Below, piece by piece: positions 7,823 to 35,803 of a stretch of 64,000 bases of DNA. Numbering within the stretch: position 1 is the first letter of the stretch; each line of letters starts with the position of its first letter. The notes under the pieces are model-generated. The model made no database searches. It was not told the DNA's origin and was given only the letters and a program-made list of their open reading frames with translations. A program made the translations under genes and the position numbers. Source of the DNA: Chloroflexota bacterium (GTDB taxonomy: Bacteria; Chloroflexota; UBA11872); the NCBI GenBank assembly GCA_965262745.1, contig OZ253558.1, positions 1,090,567-1,154,566 on the forward strand. The letters run 5' to 3'.

Positions 7823-9085
7823 TCAGAGGACCGTCTTGGGGCGCTCCTTGGTCGGATCGAAGAAGGGGACGCGTGCCACCTCGGCGTCGACGATGCCGTC
7901 CTTGGGGAGCAGCACGTTGACACGGGTGCCTCGCCGCCAGTGCGTCCGAGGCATCACCGCCAGGGCGATATTCGATCCGACGCTTGGGGACCAGAAGGCG
8001 CTGGTGACGTAGCCCACGTCATGGCCGGCGTCGAGGTCCTTGACCAGGTAGAAGTCCTCGTTGTACCAGGTGATCGGTTGACCGCCGACCCTCAAACCAA
8101 CCAGGCGCTGCTGCACTCCCTCGTCCTTGATCCTGGCCAGTGCGTCTCTACCTATAAAGTTGCTCTTGTTCAGATCCACCTGCCAGCCGAGCCGGACTTC
8201 ATAGGGATTGTTCTCGATGTCCAAGTCCTGGCCGTAGGACAGGATTCCGGCCTCCAGGCGCCGGATGTGACTGGGAGCGATCACGCGCAGGTTGAACTCC
8301 GCGCCCTGCTCCAGGATGTAAGGCCAGACATCGTCCGCGTGAAGCATGGCGTCGTGCAGGTATATCTCGAAGCCGACCTCAGCCGAGAAGCCTGTGCGCG
8401 AAATCGTTACCGCGTGGCCGTTCAGCGTCTCGTGAATCAGTCCGTAGTAGGGAATGTCTCTCACGTGCGAGCCGAACATCTTCTCCAGCAGCGGGGCCGA
8501 CTTGGGCCCCTGAATCTGGACCGGGGCCACGTCGATCTCGTTGATGTCGACGTTGTATCCGGCGCTGGCGTTGACCCCCTGCGCCCAGAGGAGCACGTCG
8601 GAATCCGAGATGCTGAACCAGAACTCGTCATCGGCGACCCGCAGCAGCACCGGGTCGTTGATGACGCCGCCGTGCTGGTTGCACAGGATCACGTAGCGCG
8701 CCTGCATCGGTGGCAATAGCGCGTGAACGTCACGCGTGATCAGCAGGTTGACGAAGTCGGCGGCGTCCGGGCCTTTGACCTGGATCTGACGCTCCACCGC
8801 AACGTCCCACATGCTCACGTGCTCAGTGAGGTAGCGGTACTCCTCGAGCAGCCCGCCATCCTCGGGTTTGATGTACGCGCGCGGGTGGTACAGGTGGTTG
8901 TAGGTCGTGTAGGCCCAACATCCGGCGGCCTTCGACAGGTGCCACCACGGAGACTTTCTGATGCGCGTCGATATGAGGATCCGTGCGTCGCTGTCCCCGC
9001 TCTGCCGCAGGTTGATCGGCACCCGACGCCGCTTGAGTCCGTCGATCACCAGCGTTTGCGTCACCTGAGGACCTCCAGTCGCCAT
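7823..9085 (-). CDS. Aminomethyltransferase-family protein (GcvT/DmdA-like folate-binding)
   Basis: The 420-aa ORF has GcvT-family architecture. It lies next to a dimethylglycine dehydrogenase-family gene. Confidence 0.65.
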   Translation of the reverse strand: MATGGPQVTQTLVIDGLKRRRVPINLRQSGDSDARILISTRIRKSPWWHLSKAAGCWAYTTYNHLYHPRAYIKPEDGGLLEEYRYLTEHVSMWDVAVERQIQVKGPDAADFVNLLITRDVHALLPPMQARYVILCNQHGGVINDPVLLRVADDEFWFSISDSDVLLWAQGVNASAGYNVDINEIDVAPVQIQGPKSAPLLEKMFGSHVRDIPYYGLIHETLNGHAVTISRTGFSAEVGFEIYLHDAMLHADDVWPYILEQGAEFNLRVIAPSHIRRLEAGILSYGQDLDIENNPYEVRLGWQVDLNKSNFIGRDALARIKDEGVQQRLVGLRVGGQPITWYNEDFYLVKDLDAGHDVGYVTSAFWSPSVGSNIALAVMPRTHWRRGTRVNVLLPKDGIVDAEVARVPFFDPTKERPKTVL

Positions 9086-23031: not shown

Positions 23032-26000
23032 CTACGCGGGTGTGAGCGGGCTCTCAGCCTCGTCGTGGGCCATTTCAAACAGCCGCGCCAGGGCGTTGGC
23101 CAGGTGCATTTGGCGGGGCGTGCGGCAGCGCACGGCGAGCAAGCCCGGACTGGCCACGACTACCGCCAGGCACTTGGCGCGGCTGGTGGCGACGTTCAAG
23201 CGGTTGAGGCTGTAGAGAAACTCCATGCCACGCGGCGCCTCGTCGGCAGAGCTTGTGGCCATCGAGTAGATGGAAATCGGGGCTTCCTGGCCTTGGAACT
23301 TATCGACAGTGCCGATTCGCAACTCCCGGAGCTCAGGTCGGGATGCAAGCTCCCCGATCTGGCGGTTGTAGGGCGTGATGATGAGCACGTCTTGAGCGGT
23401 CAGCGCGTGGGTCGCGCCTTCGGCGTCAGTCCATGAGGCGCGCGACCGGAGCAACCGGTCGACGCTCTCGGCAATCGCCGCCGCCTCTTCCTCGGAGTCG
23501 CTGATGCGGCGCTCGTGCGACACGGCCACGAAGCGCAGTCCTGTCCCGAGGAACGGGGACGAGCCGGCCAGGTCCAAGTTCTCGCGGCCGGGATGCGCGC
23601 GCAGGTTGTCCTCGTAGAAGACTTCCGAGGTGAACTCACAGATGCTGGGATGCAGGCGCCACGTGCCGTCGAGAAACAGTCCGAAGTCCTTGGGCATCAC
23701 TCGTGCGTCATCGAGTACGTGCGCCAGCACCGAACGATCCGCGCCTGGCGGATGCACGCCCTGCAGCGGCTGATCCAGCTGCTGCGGGTCGCCCAGCAGC
23801 AACAGGCTCTTGGCGCAACGTGCCGAGGCCAAGGCGTCGGCCAGCGACATCTGCCCGGCCTCGTCGATGCAGAGCACGTCCACCAAGCCCTCCGCGTCGT
23901 CACGCGCCCAGAGCCAGGAAGTTCCGCCCACCACGTCAAGCGTTCCTCTGGCCAGGGCCATGCACGCATCCTCGGTTTTCGCGAGGGGTACCGCGTCCGC
24001 GAATTCGGGCTCGGCTGACCGGTAGCGGGTCCGCTGGCCGATCCTGACCGGGACGCCGCGCTCGCGGGCCACCCGCGCCGTCTTCTCCAGCAACTCACCG
24101 ATCACCTTGTGGCTGTTGGCCGTCACGCCCACGCGCTTACCCGCCTCCACGAGGTCCACGATCATCTCGGCACCAACCGTGCTCTTGCCCGAGCCGGGCG
24201 GTCCCTGGATCGCCAGGTAGCTCTCGTCCAGCATCTGCACCAGCCGCCGGGCCGCATCCTGCGCATCCTCGCCGTCCGCCGTCAGCGGTGATCCGTCGGT
24301 CTGTCCAACCCGTGGCGGACAGCGCATCAACAGGTCTCGGGCCGCCTGGTACGGCCCGGGCGCGTCGATCCCGTGCTCAATCACCCACGTCGCCAGATTC
24401 CGAAGGCTCGACGGTTTTGGCCCTGGATTGACATATTCGTAGGCGATCAGTGATGTCGGCGCCGGTGCTGCCCGGTTGGACCCAACCTTCAGGTCGATCA
24501 CGCCGTCTCGATCGTTTACCGCGACCACTTCGCCGATCGAATTTCCGTGCTGATCGCGTGGCCGGTCGCCGACTTCGATCTTGTGGTCCTGTGGCGGGAA
24601 CCGAAAGCTGTAGATCTTGGAACGCGACTTGGGCCTGGGATCGGCCCGACTGCGCACGTAGCTGAGCTGGCCCAGCGCGTCCGTCTCGCCGACTCGCTCT
24701 TCGTCGGTGAGTTCGTCCTTCAGGTGGAAATAGCGCCACCAGAACGCCTTATCCTCGCGCCGGTGCCAGTCGAGCAGCTGCGCCAGGAGCCACCGCCCGC
24801 GTTGGCTCGGATCTTCGAGCGACCTGCCGTCCGTCAAGTCCTCGGGCAGGCCCGCTGTCAGCTGGGCCACGAGTTCCTGCACCTCCCGCTGGGCCTCCGT
24901 GTCCTCGGTCTCTTCGGGAGGCTTGACCGTAGGACGCGGCGGGGCTTCGGCGCCGACTTCGTTCACCAGCGCGGCGCGCTGGACTTCCAGCCACTCGCGC
25001 AGATAGCAGGTGGAAAGACAGTCGTCGCGGTTATAGGCCCTGATCTTCTCCAGCAGGCCGTCCCGGTCGGTCCCGTCCTCGGGTTCGAGCCAGTTCTCGA
25101 ACTCCACGATGCTCTCGCCCGCATCGCGTAGATCGATTTCCCGCTTGAATCCGTAGAGCGGCTCCAGCCGCTTGATGGAGTAGCTCTCCACCGAAGCGCG
25201 AACGCCCTGCCGCACGACGCGGTAGAGGTCCACGAACACACTGCCCCGCAGCAGCTGGTCCACCTCTGACTCACGCGTGGCGTAGCGCCCCGCCAGCCGC
25301 TTCATTGCCCCTGTCTCGTAGGGCGCGTAGTGATAGACGTGCATGTCCGGGTGGCCAGTCCGGCGCTCCATGATGAGGTCGATACAGTCCTCGAACGCCT
25401 TACGCTCGGCCGCCGGCGACACGGTGCCGTCCGCGATCGACCAGAACGCGTGAAACCTGGGGTCGCCCGCGGCGTCCGTCTGTCCCGGCTCGATCACGCC
25501 GAAGAGGTAGTCGATGCCGTCGATCTCGTCCGAGCCATAGAACGGATCGCCCTCCAGGTCCAGGAACAGGTCACCGGGCGACGGCTCCGGCAACAGCCAG
25601 AGACCGCGGTCCGGAACAACCACGTCCTCGCGGTCGCGTTCGGGCGGGATGCGCTCCGAGATCACCTGGCCTTCGCCGCGCACCTGGATCGCCGCCTGGG
25701 CCTGCACCCGGGCCAGCGAAACCGGGCTGACGCCGTCCAGCTGTTCCGGCAGCGGCCGCGACGGATCGGCCAGCCCACCCCGTGTGGTCACGTCAATGGC
25801 GTGCAGGGCGCGTCGCTGGCGGGACGTCAGGTTGGCCACCAACGCCAGATCGTCTTCCCGACGCCACTGGGCTCGGCATTCCTGGTTCCACCTGCAGAAG
25901 TCGCAGTGCTGCATGGGTTCCGGCTTGGTCGAGATTGGAAACGCCGATTCGGAGTCGTCGAGCAGCGTCTCGAACTGCCGCGCGACCAGGCGGTAGTAGG

Positions 26001-26577
26001 CCCCGTAGTCGGCGACCCGAAGGCTCGCGGTCCTGCGCGCGACGCCGCCCAGCACCAGATGCATCCGTTCCGGCGGCCGCCCCTGCATTCTCCCGAGCAG
26101 GTCTGAATACATGCTGATCTGCAAGACGGCGGGGGCCGTGGGTTGCCGCGCCAGCTTGGTGTCCCAGACTTCATAGCTCCATGCCCCGAGGTCGCTGGGT
26201 TTCTCGACGCGGCGCAGGAAGTCCGCGTACCCCAGCCGCCGGTCGCCGAGCAGCACGGCCTGGTAGATCACGTCAACGCCATCTCGCATCGCCTGCAGCG
26301 TGGCGGCGTGCTCGGATTCAACCACTCGGGACGGAGACACGGTGTCGGGCGGCCGGATTTCCCTGATTCCCAGGTTCTCGGCGTCCAGCGATTCCAGGAA
26401 GCGCGCCTCATACTCCCGACCGCGCCGCGCCAAACGGTCGAGCACTGGGTCGTCACGAAACGGCCGTTTGAGGTCATGCAGAACCGCGGCGCGCTCCAGG
26501 TTGGCCAGGTGCCGGCACTCCAGGAACGCGACCAGATCGGTGGCGGAGTAGACCAGACGCCTATCAATCAGTTGCAT
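23032..26577 (-). CDS. RecB-like nuclease + RNaseH-like domain + SF1 (Upf1/Dna2-like) helicase fusion protein (TM0106-family N-terminal region)
   Basis: The 1181-aa ORF has an N-terminal RecB/Cas4-like region with a Cys cluster (HCDFCRWNQEC). It has a C-terminal Walker A (GPPGSGKST), a Walker B (CIDEAGQ) and SF1 motifs (GDPQQL, VATSRAK). Confidence 0.7.
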   Translation of the reverse strand: MQLIDRRLVYSATDLVAFLECRHLANLERAAVLHDLKRPFRDDPVLDRLARRGREYEARFLESLDAENLGIREIRPPDTVSPSRVVESEHAATLQAMRDGVDVIYQAVLLGDRRLGYADFLRRVEKPSDLGAWSYEVWDTKLARQPTAPAVLQISMYSDLLGRMQGRPPERMHLVLGGVARRTASLRVADYGAYYRLVARQFETLLDDSESAFPISTKPEPMQHCDFCRWNQECRAQWRREDDLALVANLTSRQRRALHAIDVTTRGGLADPSRPLPEQLDGVSPVSLARVQAQAAIQVRGEGQVISERIPPERDREDVVVPDRGLWLLPEPSPGDLFLDLEGDPFYGSDEIDGIDYLFGVIEPGQTDAAGDPRFHAFWSIADGTVSPAAERKAFEDCIDLIMERRTGHPDMHVYHYAPYETGAMKRLAGRYATRESEVDQLLRGSVFVDLYRVVRQGVRASVESYSIKRLEPLYGFKREIDLRDAGESIVEFENWLEPEDGTDRDGLLEKIRAYNRDDCLSTCYLREWLEVQRAALVNEVGAEAPPRPTVKPPEETEDTEAQREVQELVAQLTAGLPEDLTDGRSLEDPSQRGRWLLAQLLDWHRREDKAFWWRYFHLKDELTDEERVGETDALGQLSYVRSRADPRPKSRSKIYSFRFPPQDHKIEVGDRPRDQHGNSIGEVVAVNDRDGVIDLKVGSNRAAPAPTSLIAYEYVNPGPKPSSLRNLATWVIEHGIDAPGPYQAARDLLMRCPPRVGQTDGSPLTADGEDAQDAARRLVQMLDESYLAIQGPPGSGKSTVGAEMIVDLVEAGKRVGVTANSHKVIGELLEKTARVARERGVPVRIGQRTRYRSAEPEFADAVPLAKTEDACMALARGTLDVVGGTSWLWARDDAEGLVDVLCIDEAGQMSLADALASARCAKSLLLLGDPQQLDQPLQGVHPPGADRSVLAHVLDDARVMPKDFGLFLDGTWRLHPSICEFTSEVFYEDNLRAHPGRENLDLAGSSPFLGTGLRFVAVSHERRISDSEEEAAAIAESVDRLLRSRASWTDAEGATHALTAQDVLIITPYNRQIGELASRPELRELRIGTVDKFQGQEAPISIYSMATSSADEAPRGMEFLYSLNRLNVATSRAKCLAVVVASPGLLAVRCRTPRQMHLANALARLFEMAHDEAESPLTPA

Positions 26578-26723: not shown

Positions 26724-27452
26724 TCACAGCGGCAGCAGGTGCCCCGCTTCGCGCAGCCGCTGACGCCGCTGTTGCGCGTCCGGCATCGCTCTAACCACCA
26801 GCCCCCAGAAGTCCGGCCCGTGGTTCTTTATTGACAGGTGCGCCAGCTCGTGCACCACGATGTACTCGACAAGGGCAGGCTCCAACATCATCGCCCGCCA
26901 GTTGAAGCGCAGCGTGCCGTCCGGCGCGCAGCTCCCCCAGCGCCGGCGTTGATCGCGGATCAGCACGCGCGGCCAGTCGCCGTGACCCAGGCGCGGCCAC
27001 CAGCGCTCCACGCTAGTTGGCAGGCGGTCTGCCGCCCGCCTCCGATACCAGGCCACGAGGGCGCGCTGGGCACTGCGGGTTCGCTCACTATCGGACGCCC
27101 CCGTTGGCACCGTGACGCGGAACCGCCAGTGATCGAAGCGCACGCTCACCGACCTGACGTCGGCGTGCTCGACCAGCAAACGCACGTTGCGGCCCAGGTA
27201 AGGCAACGTCTCACCGCTCACAAAGCGCTTCGGCGCGGCGGCCAGCGTCTCCGCGGTGCTGCGGCGCATGATCCAGGCCGCCCGCTTGCGCACGATCCCC
27301 CGCAACTCCTCGGCGGGCGTCGAAACAGGCGCGGCGACCTGGACCCCGCCCCCGTCCACGGTGATCTGCACCGTCTTCCTGCGCCGCTGACTGCGCTGCA
27401 CCTCGAACTCGATCGTGCTCTCGCCGAAACGGACGGATCCCCGCTCACTCAC
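26724..27452 (-). CDS. DUF45/YgjP-like M48-type zinc metallohydrolase
   Basis: The HExxH motif (VVHELAHL) sits in a YgjP-like context. The ORF overlaps the hsdR stop by 4 nt. Confidence 0.65.
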   Translation of the reverse strand: MSERGSVRFGESTIEFEVQRSQRRRKTVQITVDGGGVQVAAPVSTPAEELRGIVRKRAAWIMRRSTAETLAAAPKRFVSGETLPYLGRNVRLLVEHADVRSVSVRFDHWRFRVTVPTGASDSERTRSAQRALVAWYRRRAADRLPTSVERWWPRLGHGDWPRVLIRDQRRRWGSCAPDGTLRFNWRAMMLEPALVEYIVVHELAHLSIKNHGPDFWGLVVRAMPDAQQRRQRLREAGHLLPL

Positions 27453-30400
27453 GATCCCGACCTCTGACGCGCCACGTCCACGATCTGGTGCGCCAGCTCG
27501 TCCAAGCGCTCTTCCGTGAAGTCCCCCGTGCCTCGCAGCTCCCGCTTGATATCCCGGCGCATCTCGCGCTGCACTTCAAGGTTCGACTGCCAATCGATCA
27601 CGTCGCTGTGACGCTGGATGGCGCGTTCGATCGCGCGCGCCACGGCCGTCGTCTGCTCGTCCAGGGCAGTGCGATAGGAGCCTGAAGCTTCGCCCGCGTC
27701 CACGCTCGGAGAGGCCAGCAACTCGTAGACCGCAAACGACACTGGCGAGAGCCCGTGCTGCGCGGCGATGTCCGCTTCGCTTTGGACCTGCTTGCGCAAT
27801 TCGGCCAGTCGCCGGCAGGCCTCGGCAGCGTCGATCAGCCGCTGACGCAGTTCCTGGATGATGCGGTCCAATTGCTCCGAGAGCTTCTCATAGAACGCCG
27901 GGTTTTCCGCCAGTCGCTCGTTGATCTGGGCGCGGACCGCGTGCTCCATCAGCGACGCCCGCGCTTCGTCGTGCGGCAGGTCGGCAATCTTCGCCTCGAA
28001 GTCCTGATCCAGGATCGAGAGCGGCTGCATCAGGCTGCGCACCTTGGCGTCGATGCGCTCGTCGATCAGGCCCTTCACCTTCGCGCCAATATCGGTCCAA
28101 TCCAACTCCGCGTCCTCGCGCAGGAACTGCGCCCGCACATAGGCGCGAATCGCCGTCAGCCGCGCCAACCGCTGTACGTAGGGCTCGGCGCCCGGGTCCG
28201 GCAGGTAGCGGTCCATCAGGCGGGCGAACTGACGGTAGTCCGCGCTGAATCGCTCGAACAGGTCGGCCTTGAACGCGTCCTCCGAGGCGGCATCCGGCGC
28301 AAACAGCGCCGCGCAGTCCCACACGTTGCTCAGGTCGCGGCCCTTGAAGTGCGACTCCGCCTGCACCGCCGCGGCCTCGATCGCCGGCCCGGGATCCTCC
28401 TCCAGCTCGCGCATGGAGTCCTGCACGTCTGGCCAGTCGAACGTCGCCAGCGCCGCCTCCAGGTCCCGCGAGACCCCGTGATAGTCGATCACCAGGCCGT
28501 GCCGCTTCTCCGTGTCCACGTTGTCCGGCCGGTGCGCGAAGCGCCGGTTCACGCGGGCAATCGCCTGCAGCAGGCCGTGTTCCCGCAGCCCACGGTCCAG
28601 GTAGAGCACCTGCTCCACCGGCGCGTCAAACCCGGTCAGCAGCATGTCCACCACCACCAGGATCTGCGGCTCGCCCTCGGGGTCCACGAACGCGCCGGTG
28701 ATCTGCTCCTGGTTGAGATCGCGCGCCGCGGCGAACTCCGGGCCGTCGTTGTTATCGGTGGTGATGATCGGATAGGCGCTCAGCCCAAAGGTCTTCAGGC
28801 GCTCCGCGTAGCGCAGCGCCGCCGCCCGGCTGGGCGCCACCACCTGCGCCTTGAACCCGTTCGGCTGCACCTTGGCCTTGAAGTGCTGGGCAATATCCAG
28901 CGCGATCATCTCGATGCGACGCTCCGCCTCCGCCACCGTCTCCTTGTTCGCGTAGCGCCGCCGGATGCGCGCCTGCGTCTCCTCGGACTCCTGGCCGAAC
29001 ATCTCCTCGAACAGCGTGTCCAGCGTCTCCGGCCCCTCGATGTGCAGTTCCGGCAGCCGCGCCTCGTAGAGGATCGGCACGGTGGCGCCGTCGGCGACCG
29101 ACTGCGGAATCGTGTAGGAGTCGATCAGCGAACCGAATCGCCGCATCGTGCTGTGACCGAAGTCCTTGTCGATGGGCGTGCCCGTAAAGCCGATCAGCGC
29201 TGCGTTGGGAAGGGCCTTGGACATGCGCGCGCCCAGCAATCCGTATTGCGTGCGGTGCGCCTCGTCCACCATCACCACCACCTGCTCCGATGGGTTCAGC
29301 ACATCCAGCCGGCCCTTGGGAGTCGTCAGCGCGTCCTCGAACTTCTGGATTGTCGTCATCACCGTGCGGCCGCCGCCGCTTCTCAGCAGCCGGCGCAGGT
29401 TGCGGGCGTTGGTCGCCTGCTCAGGCGCCGGAAAGCCGCAGCGTTGGAAGGTGCCGCTGATCTGCCGGTCCAACTGCGTGCGGTCGGTCACCACCACGAT
29501 CGTCGGGTTGTGCAGCCGCGGCTCGCGCCGCAGCTTGGTGGCCAGCCACAGCATCGTCAGCGACTTGCCCGAGCCCTGCGTGTGCCACACCACCCCGCCG
29601 CGCTCCTCGGGACGGCGGCCCGTCAACAATCGCTCCAGCGCCGCTCGCACCGCGCGGTACTGCTGATAGCGCGGCAGCTTCTTCACCAGCTTGCCGGCCT
29701 GCGGCTCGTAGACCACGTAGTCGCGCAGGATGTCCAGTAGCGTGGCCGGCGCCAGCAGCCCCACGATCAGCCGCGCCTGGCCCTCTGGTTCCACCCCGAA
29801 GCGCTGCCGCGCCTCGGCTTCCGAATAGGGCAGCACCGACTTCCATTCCACGTAGGCGTTCTCGGGCGCGCCCAGCGTCGCGTACGCCGCCGCGGCTCCG
29901 CAGTGCGCCACGCACAGCAGGTTGGTGTGGAACAGCTCCGGCGCGCCCGTCCCGTGCCACTCGGGCCCCGCTTCTTGGTAGCGACGCAGCTGGCGCACCG
30001 CCTGCGTCCGCCACACGTCCAGCAGCGACGGCGATTTCGCCTCCATCACCACCAGCGGCACGCCGTTCACGAACAACACCAGGTCCGGCTTCACCACCCG
30101 CTGGTCGTCTTCCTGGTTGCGCCGCTCGTTACCCCGACGCACCCGGAACTGCGTCGTCACCACGAACTCGTTCAGCCCGCCCTCCGGATGATCGAAGTCG
30201 AAGAAGCGCGCAATCCGGCTCTGGCGACCACTGGGCGTGTCCACCCCCAGCGGCATGCCGTAGATCAGGTGCTCGTGCACGCGCTGATTGCGGGCCATGC
30301 CGCTGAAGTCGCTGCGCTCCAGATCAGCCACCACCCAGTCCGCCTGCGACTCGGTCATCCAGGCGTTCAACCGCAGCAACGCCCGCCGCAACCGCCCCTT

Positions 30401-30538
30401 TAGCAACACCTCCCGCTCGTCCCCGCGCTCCGCCGCCAGCGTTTCGCGTGGGACGTACGTCCAGCCCAGTCTTTCAAGCAGCTCCCGCGCCGGGTTCTCG
30501 GCGTGATGGAGCTCATTGAGCCTGGCGGGAGTGGTCAT
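27449..30538 (-). CDS. hsdR: Type I restriction enzyme R subunit (HsdR)
   Basis: The 1029-aa ORF has helicase motifs (DEAHRTQ, FTGTP) in HsdR-type architecture. It lies in an operon with hsdS and hsdM. Confidence 0.9.
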   Translation of the reverse strand: MTTPARLNELHHAENPARELLERLGWTYVPRETLAAERGDEREVLLKGRLRRALLRLNAWMTESQADWVVADLERSDFSGMARNQRVHEHLIYGMPLGVDTPSGRQSRIARFFDFDHPEGGLNEFVVTTQFRVRRGNERRNQEDDQRVVKPDLVLFVNGVPLVVMEAKSPSLLDVWRTQAVRQLRRYQEAGPEWHGTGAPELFHTNLLCVAHCGAAAAYATLGAPENAYVEWKSVLPYSEAEARQRFGVEPEGQARLIVGLLAPATLLDILRDYVVYEPQAGKLVKKLPRYQQYRAVRAALERLLTGRRPEERGGVVWHTQGSGKSLTMLWLATKLRREPRLHNPTIVVVTDRTQLDRQISGTFQRCGFPAPEQATNARNLRRLLRSGGGRTVMTTIQKFEDALTTPKGRLDVLNPSEQVVVMVDEAHRTQYGLLGARMSKALPNAALIGFTGTPIDKDFGHSTMRRFGSLIDSYTIPQSVADGATVPILYEARLPELHIEGPETLDTLFEEMFGQESEETQARIRRRYANKETVAEAERRIEMIALDIAQHFKAKVQPNGFKAQVVAPSRAAALRYAERLKTFGLSAYPIITTDNNDGPEFAAARDLNQEQITGAFVDPEGEPQILVVVDMLLTGFDAPVEQVLYLDRGLREHGLLQAIARVNRRFAHRPDNVDTEKRHGLVIDYHGVSRDLEAALATFDWPDVQDSMRELEEDPGPAIEAAAVQAESHFKGRDLSNVWDCAALFAPDAASEDAFKADLFERFSADYRQFARLMDRYLPDPGAEPYVQRLARLTAIRAYVRAQFLREDAELDWTDIGAKVKGLIDERIDAKVRSLMQPLSILDQDFEAKIADLPHDEARASLMEHAVRAQINERLAENPAFYEKLSEQLDRIIQELRQRLIDAAEACRRLAELRKQVQSEADIAAQHGLSPVSFAVYELLASPSVDAGEASGSYRTALDEQTTAVARAIERAIQRHSDVIDWQSNLEVQREMRRDIKRELRGTGDFTEERLDELAHQIVDVARQRSGS

Positions 30539-30906
30539 GGGCTCTCCCCGCGGGAGTCCTCCAACATCTTTCGCAGCTGCGGCAGCATGCTTGGGATCGC
30601 ATCTTGAATTATCGACCAGATGATGACGTCACTGATGTGCAAATAGGAGTGCGCCAAGCGATTGCGGACCCCGATGATTGCGCGCCAGGGAATCATGGGA
30701 TATGCCTCACGCGCGTCGGATGGGATATGCGTTGCCGCCTCACCGATCAGTTGGATGTTGCGCAACGTGGCGTCGTGGATGAGACCGTCGGCTGCGAAGG
30801 CGTCCTGATCCAGTCCATCCGTATATGACAGGACTTTCTCGGCGAACTCGATCATGTCCTGAACGTAAAGATTCCAGCGTCGACCTTCTTCATGGGTCTC
30901 ACACAT
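30535..30906 (-). CDS. HepT-like (DUF86) toxin of a HepT/MNT toxin-antitoxin pair
   Basis: The RX4HXY-like motif is present (RNRLAHSY). The start at 30906 overlaps the MNT stop by 8 nt. Confidence 0.65.
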   Translation of the reverse strand: MCETHEEGRRWNLYVQDMIEFAEKVLSYTDGLDQDAFAADGLIHDATLRNIQLIGEAATHIPSDAREAYPMIPWRAIIGVRNRLAHSYLHISDVIIWSIIQDAIPSMLPQLRKMLEDSRGESP

Positions 30907-31216
30907 CCACGGCCTCCCGTTCCACGTGCGGACGCATTTCGGCCCGAACGTCCTCCCGGGTCGCCAGTTCCACCGGTCGTTGCAGCAGGTCTTCCAGGTA
31001 GAACTGGGCTCCGAAGTAGGTCCGCCAGTTCGGAGGAGCGTCGAACCGCACCAGGATGTCAACGTCGCTCCCGTCGGTACCTTCGTCCCGGGCATAGGAG
31101 CCGAACAGGGCGAGATCCGCGACGCCGAATCGCTCCGCCAGCACCGGCCGGTGGGCTCGGAGCATCTCCAGCACTTCCGCTCTGGTCATGGCGTCACTCC
31201 GTCGAGGCGGGCGCAT
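30899..31216 (-). CDS. MNT-type nucleotidyltransferase antitoxin (PF01909-like)
   Basis: The 105-aa ORF has the GS...D.D nucleotidyltransferase motif (LFGSYARDEGTDGSDVDILV). Confidence 0.75.
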   Translation of the reverse strand: MRPPRRSDAMTRAEVLEMLRAHRPVLAERFGVADLALFGSYARDEGTDGSDVDILVRFDAPPNWRTYFGAQFYLEDLLQRPVELATREDVRAEMRPHVEREAVDV

Positions 31217-31370
31217 GCATTACGACTGGCAGCCTGGCATCCTCGTGTTCGCCCCCGCGCTCCGCCGCCAGTGTTTCCCGTGGCACGAAGGTCGAACCCA
31301 GCTTCTCAAGCAGCTCTCGGGCCGGGTTCTCGGCGTGATGGAGCGCGTTGAGCTTCGCGGGCTGGCTCAC
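31194..31370 (-). pseudogene. Duplicated 5' end of hsdR (about 40 codons), open as a 58-codon GTG-initiated ORF ending just before the MNT start
   Basis: The reverse complement translates to VSQPAKLNALHHAENPARELLEKLGSTFVPRETLAAERGG. The authentic HsdR N-terminus is MTTPARLNELHHAENPARELLERLGWTYVPRETLAAERGD. DNA identity to 30400..30538 is about 85%. Confidence 0.7.
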
Positions 31371-31924
31371 GACCTATTCGACCCTGTGGCCTTGCTGATG
31401 GCTCGACTTGCACCGTCCAGCCGACGCATTAGGTGATTCGCCAGCGTCAGAAGCTCAAGTGCAACGTCAGAATCATCCTCGAGCCCGTGCTCATGCGCAC
31501 GCGGATTCCTAATGCCCGTCATCGCCCCGGCATAGATATCCATGTAGCCAAGCTGTTCGTCACGGTCAGAGTTCGACTGAAAATCATTCATACAAAGAGT
31601 GGGTGAATTAACACTAAATGCTTTTCGCATAAGACTCGCACCATCCTGACCCAATATACCCGACTTTTGCTTGACTTCATTGTTCATGCATTTCAAAGCT
31701 TCTTCAACAGCCCGCGCATAGTGACCATCAGCAAACAATTGGCGGCTCACTGAACGAAGCGCCTCGCTTGTCACCACATCGTCGAATCGGTCAAGGACGG
31801 TTCGCTCGTCGGAGTGAGCACGATCCCGCCTTGATAACGTTCTCCCCAAGCCTGCCTCGTCTGCATCCATTTGAACATCGTTGGCTGCCTTGAGCCAGCC
31901 ACGATAACCTCCACGGTTAGCCAA
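31367..31924 (-). CDS. Hypothetical protein embedded in the type I R-M operon (possibly TIGR02391/PF09509-like)
   Basis: This is a 185-aa, lower-GC ORF. Recognisable blocks include ALKCMNNEVKQK and IRNPRAHE...LELLTLANHLMRRL. The family call is from memory only. Confidence 0.35.
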   Translation of the reverse strand: MANRGGYRGWLKAANDVQMDADEAGLGRTLSRRDRAHSDERTVLDRFDDVVTSEALRSVSRQLFADGHYARAVEEALKCMNNEVKQKSGILGQDGASLMRKAFSVNSPTLCMNDFQSNSDRDEQLGYMDIYAGAMTGIRNPRAHEHGLEDDSDVALELLTLANHLMRRLDGASRAISKATGSNRS

Positions 31925-31927
31925 GCG

Positions 31928-32716
31928 TCATTCATCCTTCCGACCGTACAGGTGTCGTGCCATGCTTCGAAAGATTTGGTCAATTTGATCGGCTGTAGCG
32001 CTAGAATCAATATGAATCTGACTGTCAATGTGTACAGATGGGTCAGCAGTCGCTACAGATACCGTAGTAGCCGAATTCAGTAAATCGTTGCCTTGAGGCG
32101 ATGGGTCCGCGCTTGGCTGAACATCATCCGGGATTTGTGATTTCGCACCGTCTGGCATGTTTTCTAGGGCATGGCCGATCGTTATCAGCCGCTCACTTCC
32201 ACTTACCTGTTGGATGATCCCAAGGTAGCGTGCATTTGCCATAACGATATTCCCAGCTTCCGCACGGTATCCATCGGGAACCCCTACCAGACCCAGTTCA
32301 TCTTTCAGCACATCGTCGGCAGGGACTCGCTGGTTCTTTAGCCGGCCGTACAGCTGGTTGAACGGATCGATCCGACCAATCGCATGCTCGAATTCCATCC
32401 GTAGCTTCGCCTGCCGTTCAACCGATTCATCGACGATAGATCTACCCTCTGGTGTGAGTTCCAGGAAATCCGCTTGATAGCCTCCTGATGTAAGGCCATA
32501 GCGTCCTGAACTCGTAACAAGCTCGCGGCTCGGACCGCTTTCCGGGGCACGGCCCAGCCTGTCAAACAGGGTTAGTCGCCGCATCCGGTCTCCCGCGCCT
32601 TCCATGGCGATGGTGCGTGCAATCGATAGCGCGTCCTCAAAGGTGACAGTCGGATAGGTCTTGGATGGACCGCGGCTTCGACGCGGGCTCGATGCGGTGT
32701 CCTTGGAATCTGTCAT
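31928..32716 (-). CDS. Hypothetical protein (262 aa), lower GC, between hsdS and the preceding unknown gene
   Basis: The ORF is clean and packed 4 nt from its neighbours. I recognise no family. Confidence 0.4.
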   Translation of the reverse strand: MTDSKDTASSPRRSRGPSKTYPTVTFEDALSIARTIAMEGAGDRMRRLTLFDRLGRAPESGPSRELVTSSGRYGLTSGGYQADFLELTPEGRSIVDESVERQAKLRMEFEHAIGRIDPFNQLYGRLKNQRVPADDVLKDELGLVGVPDGYRAEAGNIVMANARYLGIIQQVSGSERLITIGHALENMPDGAKSQIPDDVQPSADPSPQGNDLLNSATTVSVATADPSVHIDSQIHIDSSATADQIDQIFRSMARHLYGRKDE

Positions 32717-34011
32717 CGTTCCCCCTCTGTCGCTATCGGAACCCTCAAGGATCCCGTCAACAGTGTGTCCGTCATTGACGCTTTTAGCGATTGTACAGAG
32801 AATCGCTCCTGGAACGTCATTTCAATCGCACCCCTCGCACCGGCTATGATCTCGGCGATAGCCCGCTGCTCGCAAAGCGATGGGAGGGCAACGGTGAGTG
32901 ATCCTACTTGCTCAAGGTTGATATTCGCCTGCGCCAACTCTGAGCGAAGATCATCGACCTGCTTCTGTACCATCTTTCCGCTTAGCATGAGCGCCGTGAA
33001 CTCGGGCGTAGCCCGCTGATTCTTGGCCAATCGAACAATTGCGAGAGCCTGATTAACATTCGCGGGAAGGTGTTCACTCGTAATCAGAGCTGATCGACCG
33101 AGTGCACCAGCAATGCTCAAGAGGATGTCACCGGCTTGTAATATCGATCGCGAAAGCATCTGGTGGGTTTCACCGGTGATAAAGCGCAGTTCTCCACCTG
33201 TCACCAACCCGTCAGCGATGTTCTCGACGCGCAGGAATCGCACACCTGCTGGCACGTACTCGTGGCCCAAGGTGGTTGGCGTCGTTCCCTTGGTGATTCG
33301 CTCACATATCGCCTTCAGCCGCACGACTTGCCAGTCTGCCGGGATGATTCCCAGGCCGGGCACGCTGCGCCATTCGGTATGCCAGCCGGGAACGCCGCGG
33401 GTGAGGAGGTCGTGGAGCAGGGCGTCGCGCAGGCGCTCGGTGGCGCTGATGACCGCCTCGGTGTGTTCGATGGCCTCGTCAATGGCATCCAGCACGGCGG
33501 CGATAGCACACTGTTCCGACAGCGGTGGTAGAAGAATCGGTAGGGAACGCGTTGCATCCAGCGTCAGACCGAATCGCGTGATCCCGTTCGCCACACGAGC
33601 AAACTCTCGGCGTGATGCCTGAGAGCCCAATGCTTCTGCAAGGAATTGACCTTCTACGACCGTCGGCCGCGGTCGCGCCATTCCAAGGTGATAGCCGCAC
33701 AAGACATTAGGCATCGTGTCTGTGACATAAGCGGCGATACCTATTTCGTCAGGGGTTTCGGAGTCTTTTGTGAAGAGCACGTCACCACGCTTCAGGCTCC
33801 AGCGCTTGTGCTCTTTCGCAGTCGCCGTAGCTTCCATGAACGGCATTCCAGGTCCGATGAGTCGATTGTAAAACACGTCCGTATAGTTGCAGAGTTGAAC
33901 TGGTATTTCACTGTCCATTTTCTTCTTGTCTACTCCACTAAAGGCAATAGCTGCCACGTCCCCCAGCTGCACCACTCGCCACCCGTCCGGCAACTCACTC
34001 AGATCGCGCAT
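32713..34011 (-). CDS. hsdS: Type I restriction-modification specificity subunit (HsdS)
   Basis: The ORF has two target-recognition domains separated by conserved helical spacers, and sits between hsdM and hsdR. Confidence 0.8.
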   Translation of the reverse strand: MRDLSELPDGWRVVQLGDVAAIAFSGVDKKKMDSEIPVQLCNYTDVFYNRLIGPGMPFMEATATAKEHKRWSLKRGDVLFTKDSETPDEIGIAAYVTDTMPNVLCGYHLGMARPRPTVVEGQFLAEALGSQASRREFARVANGITRFGLTLDATRSLPILLPPLSEQCAIAAVLDAIDEAIEHTEAVISATERLRDALLHDLLTRGVPGWHTEWRSVPGLGIIPADWQVVRLKAICERITKGTTPTTLGHEYVPAGVRFLRVENIADGLVTGGELRFITGETHQMLSRSILQAGDILLSIAGALGRSALITSEHLPANVNQALAIVRLAKNQRATPEFTALMLSGKMVQKQVDDLRSELAQANINLEQVGSLTVALPSLCEQRAIAEIIAGARGAIEMTFQERFSVQSLKASMTDTLLTGSLRVPIATEGER

Positions 34012-34093: not shown

Positions 34094-35623
34094 TTAGCGC
34101 TCATAACCCAGCTCCGCCAGCAGCTTGTCCATCTTCGCCACCGCCTCATCGCGCCGCCGTTCGGCCTCTCGCAGCTGCGCCAGCGCCTCCTCCACGCTGA
34201 GCACCTCTATGGGCTCGCTGGTATCCACGTAGCGGCTGATGTTGAGGTTGAAGTCGTTGGCCTCGATCTCCGCCAGGTCGGCCACGTGGGCGAAGCGCTC
34301 GACATCCTCGAAGCCGCGGTAGGCGGCGACGATCTTTTGGATGTGCTCCCGGTCCAGGAAGTTCTGCGCCTTGCCCTGGCGGAAATAGCCCTCCTGCGCC
34401 GCGTCCACGAACAGCACCTTGCCGCGCCGCTCGCTGGGCTTGGCCTTGTTGAGCACGCAGATGGCCACCGGGATGCTGGCTCCGTAGAAGAGGTTGGGCG
34501 CCAGGCCGATCACGGCCTCGAAAAGGTCGCTTTCGACGATGCCGCGGCGGATCTTGCCCTCGGCGCCACCACGGAACAGCACCCCGTGCGGCATCACCAC
34601 GCCCACCATGCCCGTCATGGTGGTGACGGCCAGCATGTGCAGCAGGAACGCCAGGTCGCCCCTGGTGCGCGGCGGAATCGCGCCATAGCGGTCGAAGCGG
34701 TGATGCGGGTCGTCGGGCGCGAAATCGTGGCCCCAGTTCTTGAGGCTGAACGGGGGATTCGCGATCACCCGGTCGAAGGCCAGCAGGCGGCCGGCGTTGT
34801 CCAGCAGGCGCGGCTCGGCGATCACGTCGCCTTCCTCCAGCCGCGCGGCGGACAGCCCATGCAGCAGCAGGTTGAGCTTGCCGGCGGCCAGCGTGCCTCG
34901 GTTGCGCTCCTGCCCGTGCAGCACCAGGTTGCGCCGGTCGCCCCCCTGCTCCTGCACGAACTGCGCGGTGTAGATGAGCATGCCGCCCGAGCCGGCCGTC
35001 GGGTCGCAGATGCGCATGCCCTCACGCGGCTGCAGCAGCTCGACGATCAGCCGCACCACCGGGCGCGGGGTGTAGAACTCGCCGCCCTTCTTGCCGGCGT
35101 CGTCGGCGAACTGATTGATCAAGTATTCGTAGGCGTCGCCCAGCACGTTGTCCGAGCCGCCGTCCGCGCCGCGCAGGTTCGCGTCGCGCAGGTCAAGCTC
35201 GCTGAAGTGGTTGAGCAGTTGGCGGATGATGCGCTCGCGGTTGGCCGGGCTGCCCAGCCGGGATTCGTCGTTCCAGTTGACGCTGGTCAGCACGCCGTCC
35301 AGCCGCTGCACGTTCTCAATTTCGATGTTGTGCCCGGCCACGTTGAGGGTCTCGCCCAGGTTCATGGACGCCCTCACCAGGGCGGGCCAGCGAGCGGATT
35401 CCGGCACGAAGAACTCGTGCTCGTCGTGGTCCGTCAGTGCCGTCTGGCGCGGCACGCCCGAGGCCACGGCGGCCTCGACCTCTTCGTCGAACCGGTCCGA
35501 CAACCGCTTCAGGAACAGCACCGCAAAGATGTAGTTCTTGTAATCCGCCGCGTCGATCTGCCCGCGCAGGATGTCCGCGGCCTGCCAGAGCTTGGATTGC
35601 AGTTCCTGCTGACTGAGCGGCAT
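34094..35623 (-). CDS. hsdM: Type I restriction-modification N6-adenine DNA methyltransferase (HsdM)
   Basis: There is a SAM-binding motif, the catalytic NPPF motif (ANPPFSLKNW) and an HsdM N-terminal domain. The real start is MPLSQQELQSKLW at 35623, and the longer ORF would run into the tRNA. Confidence 0.9.
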   Translation of the reverse strand: MPLSQQELQSKLWQAADILRGQIDAADYKNYIFAVLFLKRLSDRFDEEVEAAVASGVPRQTALTDHDEHEFFVPESARWPALVRASMNLGETLNVAGHNIEIENVQRLDGVLTSVNWNDESRLGSPANRERIIRQLLNHFSELDLRDANLRGADGGSDNVLGDAYEYLINQFADDAGKKGGEFYTPRPVVRLIVELLQPREGMRICDPTAGSGGMLIYTAQFVQEQGGDRRNLVLHGQERNRGTLAAGKLNLLLHGLSAARLEEGDVIAEPRLLDNAGRLLAFDRVIANPPFSLKNWGHDFAPDDPHHRFDRYGAIPPRTRGDLAFLLHMLAVTTMTGMVGVVMPHGVLFRGGAEGKIRRGIVESDLFEAVIGLAPNLFYGASIPVAICVLNKAKPSERRGKVLFVDAAQEGYFRQGKAQNFLDREHIQKIVAAYRGFEDVERFAHVADLAEIEANDFNLNISRYVDTSEPIEVLSVEEALAQLREAERRRDEAVAKMDKLLAELGYER

Positions 35624-35719
35624 CGGTTCTCCCTGTGGCGCTGTGGGGGCGTAGGTACTGATGGCGCCGACAAGCGAGTCTCGCAGATGCTCACGGCGCG
35701 GCCGCGCGGTGTGAACGGG

Positions 35720-35803
35720 TGCCGAGGGCGGGACTCGAACCCGCACAGCCCGGAGGCCACTAGCCCCTCAAGCTAGCGCGTCTACCAATTCCGCCACCTC
35801 GGC
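35720..35803 (-). tRNA. tRNA-Leu (anticodon GAG), type II with a long variable arm
   Basis: The reverse complement gccgaggtggcggaattggtagacgcgctagcttgaggggctagtggcctccgggctgtgcgggttcgagtcccgccctcggca folds as a cloverleaf by hand. It has a 7-bp acceptor stem, a D-arm, an anticodon loop ttGAGgg, a 15-nt variable arm and a T-arm gcggg/ttcgagt/cccgc. Confidence 0.8.

Follow-up and report, generated by a model that had tools for sequence, protein, structure and literature searches.

A winged-helix/HEPN gene pair between hsdS and hsdR of a Chloroflexota type I restriction-modification operon is an autonomous cassette and a candidate conflict module

Introduction

Are two tightly packed genes in the gap between hsdS and hsdR of a type I restriction-modification (R-M) operon an accessory of that operon, or a module of their own? 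This question is raised by a 64,000-nt stretch of a Chloroflexota genome (assembly GCA_965262745.1, contig OZ253558.1, positions 1,090,567 to 1,154,566; the whole stretch is called the window in the following), whose minus strand carries, within a type I operon, an open reading frame (ORF) of 262 aa and one of 185 aa, here labelled P262 and Ymh. A first-pass annotation of these genes had proposed them as a candidate accessory or novel defence pair. Our analysis revealed that the pair is an autonomous cassette that is sometimes lodged in type I operons and is not an R-M accessory, since only four of 33 related loci are embedded in such an operon and the flanks of the others are heterogeneous. 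Regarding its role, we assign a probability of roughly 50% to the reading that P262 and Ymh form a two-gene conflict module (abortive-infection or toxin-antitoxin-like), travelling as a passenger in the R-M operon, in which a conserved C-terminal tail of P262 would dock an N-terminal helix of Ymh; the docking itself we hold to be possible rather than probable.

Anatomy of the gene pair

The P262 gene (31928..32716, minus strand), encoding a tandem winged helix, a linker and a conserved C-terminal tail, and the Ymh-family HEPN gene (31367..31924, minus strand), which begins with TTG, were found at exactly the coordinates and on the strand given in the first-pass annotation, in the same orientation as hsdM, hsdS and hsdR. 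The tight packing described there was confirmed as well: the ATG start of P262 overlaps the hsdS stop by 4 nt (ATGA, 32713-32716), a 3-nt spacer separates the P262 stop from the Ymh start, and the Ymh stop overlaps, again by 4 nt, the GTG of a 5' fragment of hsdR (GTGA, 31367-31370). The order of genes on the minus strand is hsdM-hsdS-P262-Ymh-(hsdR fragment-MntA-HepT)-hsdR. The pair does lie between hsdS and hsdR, but it shares this gap with the hsdR fragment and with the MntA/HepT genes, both of which had been overlooked. Since 173 homologues of P262 and 967 of Ymh exist, both are real genes and not chance ORFs. A scan for consensus promoters and terminators detected none on the minus strand inside the operon, a negative that carries little weight in a Chloroflexota genome.

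The P262 gene has a GC content of 0.545 and the Ymh gene one of 0.527 (0.52 at third codon positions, GC3, in both), compared to 0.675 for hsdM (GC3 0.90), 0.677 for hsdR (GC3 0.89) and 0.659 for the whole window. Among 1253 sliding windows, the 1350-bp stretch of the two genes ranks third from the lowest in GC, and the minimum of the window falls within it. The earlier statement that the pair is lower in GC than its neighbours therefore holds against hsdM and hsdR, but hsdS is itself low (0.570, GC3 0.62) and shows little contrast.

P262 and Ymh share a reading frame and are split only by TGA-CGC (31925-31930), with the same spacing in the closely related locus L001. A programmed read-through from P262 into Ymh was considered and appears unlikely, because this spacing is not kept in other relatives.

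Ymh, a predicted HEPN RNase

The first-pass suggestion that the 185-aa protein belongs to the Hypoth_Ymh/TIGR02391 class proved right. Comparison with PF09509 resulted in 105.8 bits (cut-off 25; E 1.7e-30) over residues 57-169, and comparison with TIGR02391 in 80.5 bits (cut-off 39.45; E 1.1e-22), the profile matches together spanning residues 55-173, so that the protein is, judged by its sequence, a member of this HEPN family. The family was described as carrying a conserved Rx4-6H motif and its members as predicted active RNases (Anantharaman et al. 2013, PMC3710099); they occur alone or in fusions with pMORC, AbiJ-NTD1 or AbiTii, and were also reported "in operon with R-M" (PMC3710099), in agreement with what the first-pass annotation had said of the family. 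In the window, the Rx4H active-site motif reads R139-N-P-R-A-H144 (31493..31510, minus strand), and 68 aligned sequences show no variation at R139, N140, P141, R142 and H144. Ymh is thus predicted to be an RNase with an intact R-x4-H site.

The AlphaFold2 (AF2) model of Ymh, with a mean predicted local distance difference test (pLDDT) score of 86.7, revealed three parts: an N-terminal amphipathic helix of residues 6-23 (RGWLKAANDVQMDADEA; 31856..31909, minus strand), a low-confidence linker of residues 24-42, and an all-alpha domain of residues 43-171 (31412..31798, minus strand) with a pLDDT of 95-98, the predicted HEPN catalytic domain. Within the N-terminal region, A14, Q18 and G25 are conserved in at least 90% of the sequences. 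Because residues of the N-terminal helix are conserved, the TTG is taken as the true start of the gene and not the internal ATG chosen by some gene callers. In one relative (P0228), the helix is replaced by a different N-domain of 160 aa. The PADLOC models PD-Lambda-3_B and Aga_HEPN match Ymh via its C-terminal HEPN part only. A sequence search against the PDB found no relative of solved structure, and the best PDB folds for the Ymh model, which include the HEPN proteins 2hsb, 1ufb and 2q00, had E values of 1 or more.

P262, a tandem winged-helix protein with a conserved tail

The upstream partner had been called unassigned, and it remained so in our searches: P262 matched no family in Pfam, NCBIfam or PADLOC (for PADLOC, none at E <=1), and no relative was found by sequence in the PDB. 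Its AF2 model (mean pLDDT 84.9) consists of two winged-helix units at residues 20-185 (32162..32659, minus strand; pLDDT 97-98), in which the pattern H-E-H-H-E-E occurs twice, a disordered linker at residues 186-225 (32042..32161, minus strand; pLDDT 40-51; up to about residue 227 in the model), and a C-terminal tail at residues 226-257 (31946..32041, minus strand), of which residues 228-257 were modelled at pLDDT 77-89 in the monomer. Foldseek searches (PDB, BFVD) with this model yielded weak matches, all of them to winged-helix proteins, namely the recognition domains of FokI and BpuJI, MarR/DtxR and MukF. Based on the model, the winged-helix units are predicted to bind nucleic acid.

While the linker varies in sequence and length across the homologue alignment, the tail (PSVHIDxQIHIDSSAxxxQIDQIFxSMARHLY) is the best-conserved part of the P262 family: 12 of its 32 positions (P226, H229, Q233, H235, I236, Q244, D246, F249, M252, H255, L256 and Y257) are invariant in 23 sequences of only 35-53% overall identity. 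In the predicted strand of the tail, H229, D231, Q233, H235 and D237 stand on alternate positions; the face that they form together with the invariant H255 could be metal- or ligand-binding.

Conserved pairing and genomic context

For a survey of related loci, one genome per species was scanned, resulting in 80 loci, of which 33 encode full-length relatives of P262, mostly from Chloroflexota, but also from Latescibacterota, Acidobacteriota and Herpetosiphon. A Ymh gene follows the P262 relative directly in 30 of these 33 loci, and its start lies between -19 and +14 nt from the upstream stop with a single exception among the P262-type pairs. Only in four loci (L004, L008, L020 and L029) is the pair embedded between hsdS and hsdR, and R-M remnants were found in two more, a 40-codon hsdR fragment after Ymh in L034 and an hsdM gene 4.5 kb upstream in L031. 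Of the original proposal, the conserved pair therefore stands, but its association with R-M does not, as the family occurs mostly outside such operons.

This distribution bears on the reading that the pair is a type I R-M accessory, with P262 as a controller-type regulator of the hsd genes and Ymh as a latent nuclease that, like PrrC, is kept masked by the Hsd complex. The pair does sit where prrC is found, between hsdS and hsdR, its translation is coupled to that of hsdS and to an hsdR start, Ymh proteins are documented in R-M operons (PMC3710099), and the four embedded instances are independent of each other. Nevertheless, 27-29 of the 33 loci show no type I genes within 10 kb, Ymh lacks the ATPase domain of PrrC, and the cassette is exchanged separately from hsdM and hsdR, so that we consider an accessory role very unlikely.

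The remaining flanks are mixed and comprise type ISP enzymes, IS110 and ISAZ013 transposases, transporters, aconitase and ribonucleotide reductase. Metabolic or transport genes thus flank many of the loci, and some HEPN proteins are regulators (MtlR, PMC3710099), as would suit a housekeeping pair in RNA processing or regulation without any part in genetic conflict. Such a role is hard to reconcile with the patchy distribution, the foreign GC content and the recent horizontal exchange of the genes, with the strictly conserved catalytic motif, with relatives that were found as embedded defence candidates, and with the swapping of effectors for SEFIR/TIR proteins described below; we regard it as the least credible of the explanations considered here.

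A wider family with interchangeable sensors and effectors

The other 47 of the 80 loci matched the tail only, with 62-78% identity over about 35 residues, and belong to very diverse phyla. Their N-terminal regions are DUF5343 (PF17278) or DUF5343-like, or of a third type. P262 itself gave no Pfam match to DUF5343, and hhalign of the profile of its N-domain against that of the DUF5343-like proteins resulted in a probability of 7.7% over 45 columns. In a scan of the 44-residue tail region against 1.84 billion representative proteins (E <=1e-3, clusters at 50% identity), the tail was found in at least 470 protein clusters; it forms the extreme C-terminus in 150 of the 150 matches listed, and most of the classified full-length proteins are DUF5343-like. 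Across this wider family, its consensus is PSxHIDIQIHIxxxAxxEQIDQIFxSMAxHLY.

Downstream of the tail proteins, we identified three classes of partners, namely Ymh, DUF4145-like HEPN proteins (170-175 aa; Pfam E 4e-4 to 1e-3, below the gathering score) and SEFIR/TIR proteins (290-330 aa; PADLOC bSEFIR, up to 7e-23). In the 80 loci, P262-like N-domains are accompanied by Ymh in 30 cases, by a DUF4145-like protein in one, by SEFIR in none and by other or no partners in two; for DUF5343-like N-domains, the respective numbers are 18, 19, 4 and 1, for the third type 2, 1, 0 and 0, and for short or fragmentary N-domains 2, 0, 0 and 0. At their N-termini, Ymh and DUF4145-like effectors resemble each other in an amphipathic helix (consensus +xΦLxxAxxIQxEvd), which is followed by a variable linker. 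With a profile built from Ymh helices only, about nine DUF4145-like proteins outscored every background ORF among the 11,854 ORFs of the loci, each with its N-terminus; for the four SEFIR effectors, the resemblance of the N-terminal helix was recognised by eye only. In the two AF2 models, the tail of P262 and the helix of Ymh each sit on a flexible tether.

Relatives of greater length (378-443 aa), which might be taken for fusions of P262 and Ymh, were rejected as such, since their extra domain is TIR-like. These single genes fuse the tandem winged helix directly to the TIR-like domain (CBASS TIR effector model, 3e-9) and have neither tail nor helix; examples are P0097 and P0113 (L084 6001-7176 and L086 6001-7173). 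One of the long forms adjoins AbiEi/AbiEii, hsdM/hsdS, RadC and an integrase, another lies on a conjugative element beside HigBA.

Sensor and effector types hence recombine freely around two constants, the tail and the helix, both of which are lost when sensor and effector are fused. This raises the tentative idea, which we hold to be possible rather than probable, that tail and helix form a universal non-covalent plug-and-socket joint. Each of three or more unrelated sensor domains (tandem winged helix, DUF5343 and the third type) could use it to recruit effectors of any of three or more classes (Ymh, DUF4145-like HEPN and SEFIR/TIR). If so, the joint might, with the same reservation, represent an undescribed docking-domain principle, comparable to effector-associated adaptor domains and to the docking domains of polyketide synthases.

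Alternatively, tail and helix make no mutual contact: the tail would be a degron, a homo-oligomerisation element or, through its H-x-D-x-Q-x-H-x-D face, a metal- or ligand-binding element, the effector helix would have a role of its own such as autoinhibition or binding to the winged helices, and the two proteins would be coupled in another way. The invariant His, Asp and Gln at alternate positions of the tail fit this view, as do the pLDDT that the tail reaches in a monomer model without partner and the lack of any covariation signal. Yet tail and helix are the sole constant elements over all combinations of sensor and effector, and both are missing exactly where these are covalently fused; we therefore regard independent roles as distinctly improbable.

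The same family bears on a classical type II toxin-antitoxin (TA) system, in which P262, as the antitoxin, would bind DNA, repress its own expression and neutralise the HEPN toxin with its C-terminal segment, serving island stabilisation or stress arrest without dedicated sensing of phages. We judge this to be unlikely, though several features agree with it: the gene of a small regulator precedes that of the toxin, in a conserved order and with coupled or overlapping genes in nearly all loci, a winged helix with a flexible C-terminal peptide is a typical antitoxin architecture, the pairs stand alone in unrelated chromosomal contexts, and a second TA pair (MntA/HepT) adjoins in the window. However, neutralising peptides normally co-evolve with their toxin, whereas here one nearly invariant tail accompanies three unrelated effector types, and the direct fusions of the winged helix to a TIR-like effector suit the logic of sensor and effector better than that of a separable antitoxin.

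Proposed mechanism of the conflict module

Returning to the reading of P262-Ymh as a conflict module, a role in conflict or defence is suggested by the swapping of HEPN and SEFIR/TIR effectors, by relatives of the tail proteins among the PDC-M34A proteins (see below), and by long forms on mobile elements. The anatomy of the genes, the families to which they belong, their conserved pairing, the swapping of partners in varying combinations and the mobility of the cassette are observed; beyond these, we infer a course of events in which P262 would act as sensor or regulator and its tail would dock the N-terminal helix of Ymh, so that the RNase is held inactive. A trigger, which might be phage infection, loss of a labile partner or a nucleic acid bound by the winged helices, would alter this held state, and the freed or activated Ymh RNase would then cut cellular or phage RNA, by which growth or infection may be aborted. 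The same joint of tail and helix would let DUF5343-like sensors use DUF4145-like HEPN or SEFIR/TIR effectors. In this way, P262-Ymh would be one member of a larger, uncharacterised family of candidate anti-phage modules whose parts can be mixed and matched.

Several results weigh against this mechanism. Most P262-Ymh loci are flanked by ordinary genes and not by defence islands, and tblastn of P262 against collections of plasmids and phages resulted in no match. Fold searches yielded no significant match for either P262 or Ymh. The four SEFIR partners did not rise above the background with the Ymh-helix profile among the ORFs of the loci. Finally, the HIS and HID variants of the tail track the family of the N-domain and not the type of effector; covariation of tail and helix is therefore confounded by phylogeny and neither supports nor refutes a contact between them.

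If the mechanism holds, it would provide a predicted role for the unannotated P262 family and for the wider tail family including DUF5343 proteins, and it would unite the dispersed Ymh, DUF4145-like and SEFIR effectors in a single modular system. A short transferable pair of tail and helix could explain effector swapping in defence modules and could serve as a small orthogonal docking tag.

Comparison with known systems

Neither the Ymh family nor its occurrence with R-M genes is new, both having been described in 2013 (PMC3710099). Ymh of the window agrees with that description in scoring above both curated cut-offs, in its Rx4-6H motif and in its R-M operon setting; as a difference, that description makes no mention of a tethered N-terminal helix or of a tail-bearing winged-helix partner. 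Neither the literature searched nor Pfam, NCBIfam or PADLOC contains the P262 family, the tail, or the helix that the effectors share and that is a possible part of a joint.

Among catalogued systems, PDC-M34, a two-gene candidate, comes closest. PDC systems are candidates by guilt-by-embedding in BREX, DISARM or type I R-M systems (Payne et al. 2024, bioRxiv 10.1101/2024.01.29.577857). DUF5343-plus-tail proteins, which carry the P262-type tail, match the PADLOC model PDC-M34A over their full length (2e-40 at best; range 2e-40 to 1e-11). P262, however, shares only the tail with them, as its N-domain is a tandem winged helix instead of DUF5343 and it has no PADLOC match. The PDC-M34B model matched none of the effectors tested (Ymh of the window and 13 partner proteins from related loci), so that the catalogued cassette is another combination; the supplement of 10.1101/2024.01.29.577857 defines PDC-M34B only as FAM_01657. 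A literature search on DUF5343, PF17278 and PDC-M34 resulted in no hits.

The closest architectural logic is that of the AbiJ-type proteins, in which interchangeable Ymh, DUF4145 and TIR-like effectors likewise stand behind one constant N-terminal module, AbiJ-NTDs being fused to Ymh, DUF4145, TIR or deoxyribosyltransferase effectors (PMC3710099). In contrast to these, where sensor and effector form one polypeptide with AbiJ-NTDs, P262-type modules mostly consist of two genes that are apparently joined by tail and helix, and they use winged-helix or DUF5343 sensors.

In position, the pair most resembles PrrC (EcoprrI), also a HEPN RNase whose gene lies between hsdS and hsdR and which, by cleaving RNA, could plausibly serve as a second line of defence. 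This anticodon nuclease is a single protein with an ABC-type ATPase and is almost exclusively embedded in R-M systems, whereas P262-Ymh has no NTPase domain, includes a partner protein of its own and lies mostly outside R-M operons.

PD-Lambda-3 (Vassallo et al. 2022), which has an entry in PADLOC and has been reviewed together with other systems of phage defence, consists of two genes as well, and the C-terminus of its B protein is a Ymh-type domain. The HEPN part of Ymh matches the C-terminal half of the PD-Lambda-3_B model (6e-18), but the match covers only positions 141-267 of 270, the PD-(D/E)XK nuclease A is absent here, where P262 is a winged-helix protein, and the system was reported only in Proteobacteria. 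With the type VII TA system HepT/MntA, finally, an example of which follows directly downstream in the operon, the pair has in common that a HEPN RNase toxin would be controlled by a small protein whose gene precedes it; P262, however, is no nucleotidyltransferase, and the HEPN family is Ymh and not HepT/DUF86.

A second passenger and mosaic exchange between type I loci

The gap between hsdS and hsdR holds a second passenger, which is the MntA-like/HepT-like pair. The gene for the MntA-like nucleotidyltransferase (30899..31216, minus strand; PF01909 1.7e-15; PADLOC PDC-S09 4e-27) likely starts at M10 (31189), and the start of the gene for the HepT-like HEPN RNase toxin (30535..30906, minus strand; PF01934 4.1e-26), whose stop overlaps the ATG of hsdR, was set by reading the sequence and by comparison with the 123-aa gene of L001. 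NCBIfam equivalog scores of the two proteins were below the cut-off (35.8 for MntA and 38.9 for HepT compared to 60). Between Ymh and the MntA-like gene, we detected a duplicate of the 5' end of hsdR (31194..31370, minus strand; 58 codons). It agrees with the true start of hsdR in about 77% of the amino acids and about 85% of the nucleotides, and it is also present in L001-L004. The P262-Ymh and the MntA/HepT cassettes both end in a stop/start overlap onto an hsdR start codon.

The closest relative of the locus is that of a Chloroflexota metagenome-assembled genome (OZ244806.1; 97% identity), which shows the same gene order. A block from about 33400 to 30520, comprising the 3' half of hsdS, P262, Ymh, the hsdR fragment, MntA and HepT, revealed 92-100% nucleotide identity to OZ244806.1 (L001/L004), and hsdS from about 33400 to 32713 is 99-100% identical. 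Outside this block, hsdM reaches 84% and hsdR 65-87% identity, while the 5' half of hsdS could not be aligned. This suggests, from the nucleotide comparison, that the passenger block, together with one target-recognition domain, was recently exchanged between type I loci by recombination through conserved hsd sequence, which would also explain the duplicated start of hsdR. As a local mosaic, passenger cassettes would thus move between type I R-M loci through conserved hsdS/hsdR sequence and take a target-recognition domain along.

Two further loci look like cassettes that were carried off from type I loci with scraps of them: L018 (10163-12199) harbors a 5'-truncated P262 together with Ymh, MntA-like and HepT-like genes but has no hsd genes in the vicinity, and L034 (9956-11455) harbors the pair and its hsdR fragment without an R-M system. 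In L001, an extra DUF4160/DUF2442 gene pair (8290-8803) is located between hsdM and hsdS, forming a third insertion slot in the operon. The window does not have this pair and shows an 82-nt gap between hsdM and hsdS instead.

The R-M genes and their surroundings

Among the R-M genes proper, hsdS (32713..34011, minus strand) was assigned by PF01420, and hsdR (27449..30538, minus strand; 1029 aa) by its HSDR_N, SWI2_SNF2, T1R_D3-like and T1RH-like_C domains. The hsdM gene (34094..35746, minus strand), with HsdM_N and N6_Mtase domains, was called as an ORF of 550 aa. Since a tRNA-Leu gene (anticodon GAG; 35718-35803, minus strand) overlaps the 5' end of this ORF and relatives of HsdM are 509-510 aa long, the ORF is over-extended at its 5' end, and the true start is probably near 35620. 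The R-M locus thus starts directly downstream of a tRNA gene, a typical island boundary.

At the other end of the operon, a gene for a YgjP-like metallopeptidase (26724-27452, minus strand) overlaps the stop of hsdR by 4 nt, and such a gene also follows hsdR in L001, L020 and L029. Beyond it lies a gene for a protein of 1181 aa (23032-26577, minus strand) with RNase_H_2 and SF1 helicase (AAA_11/AAA_12) domains, which is possibly another defence gene.

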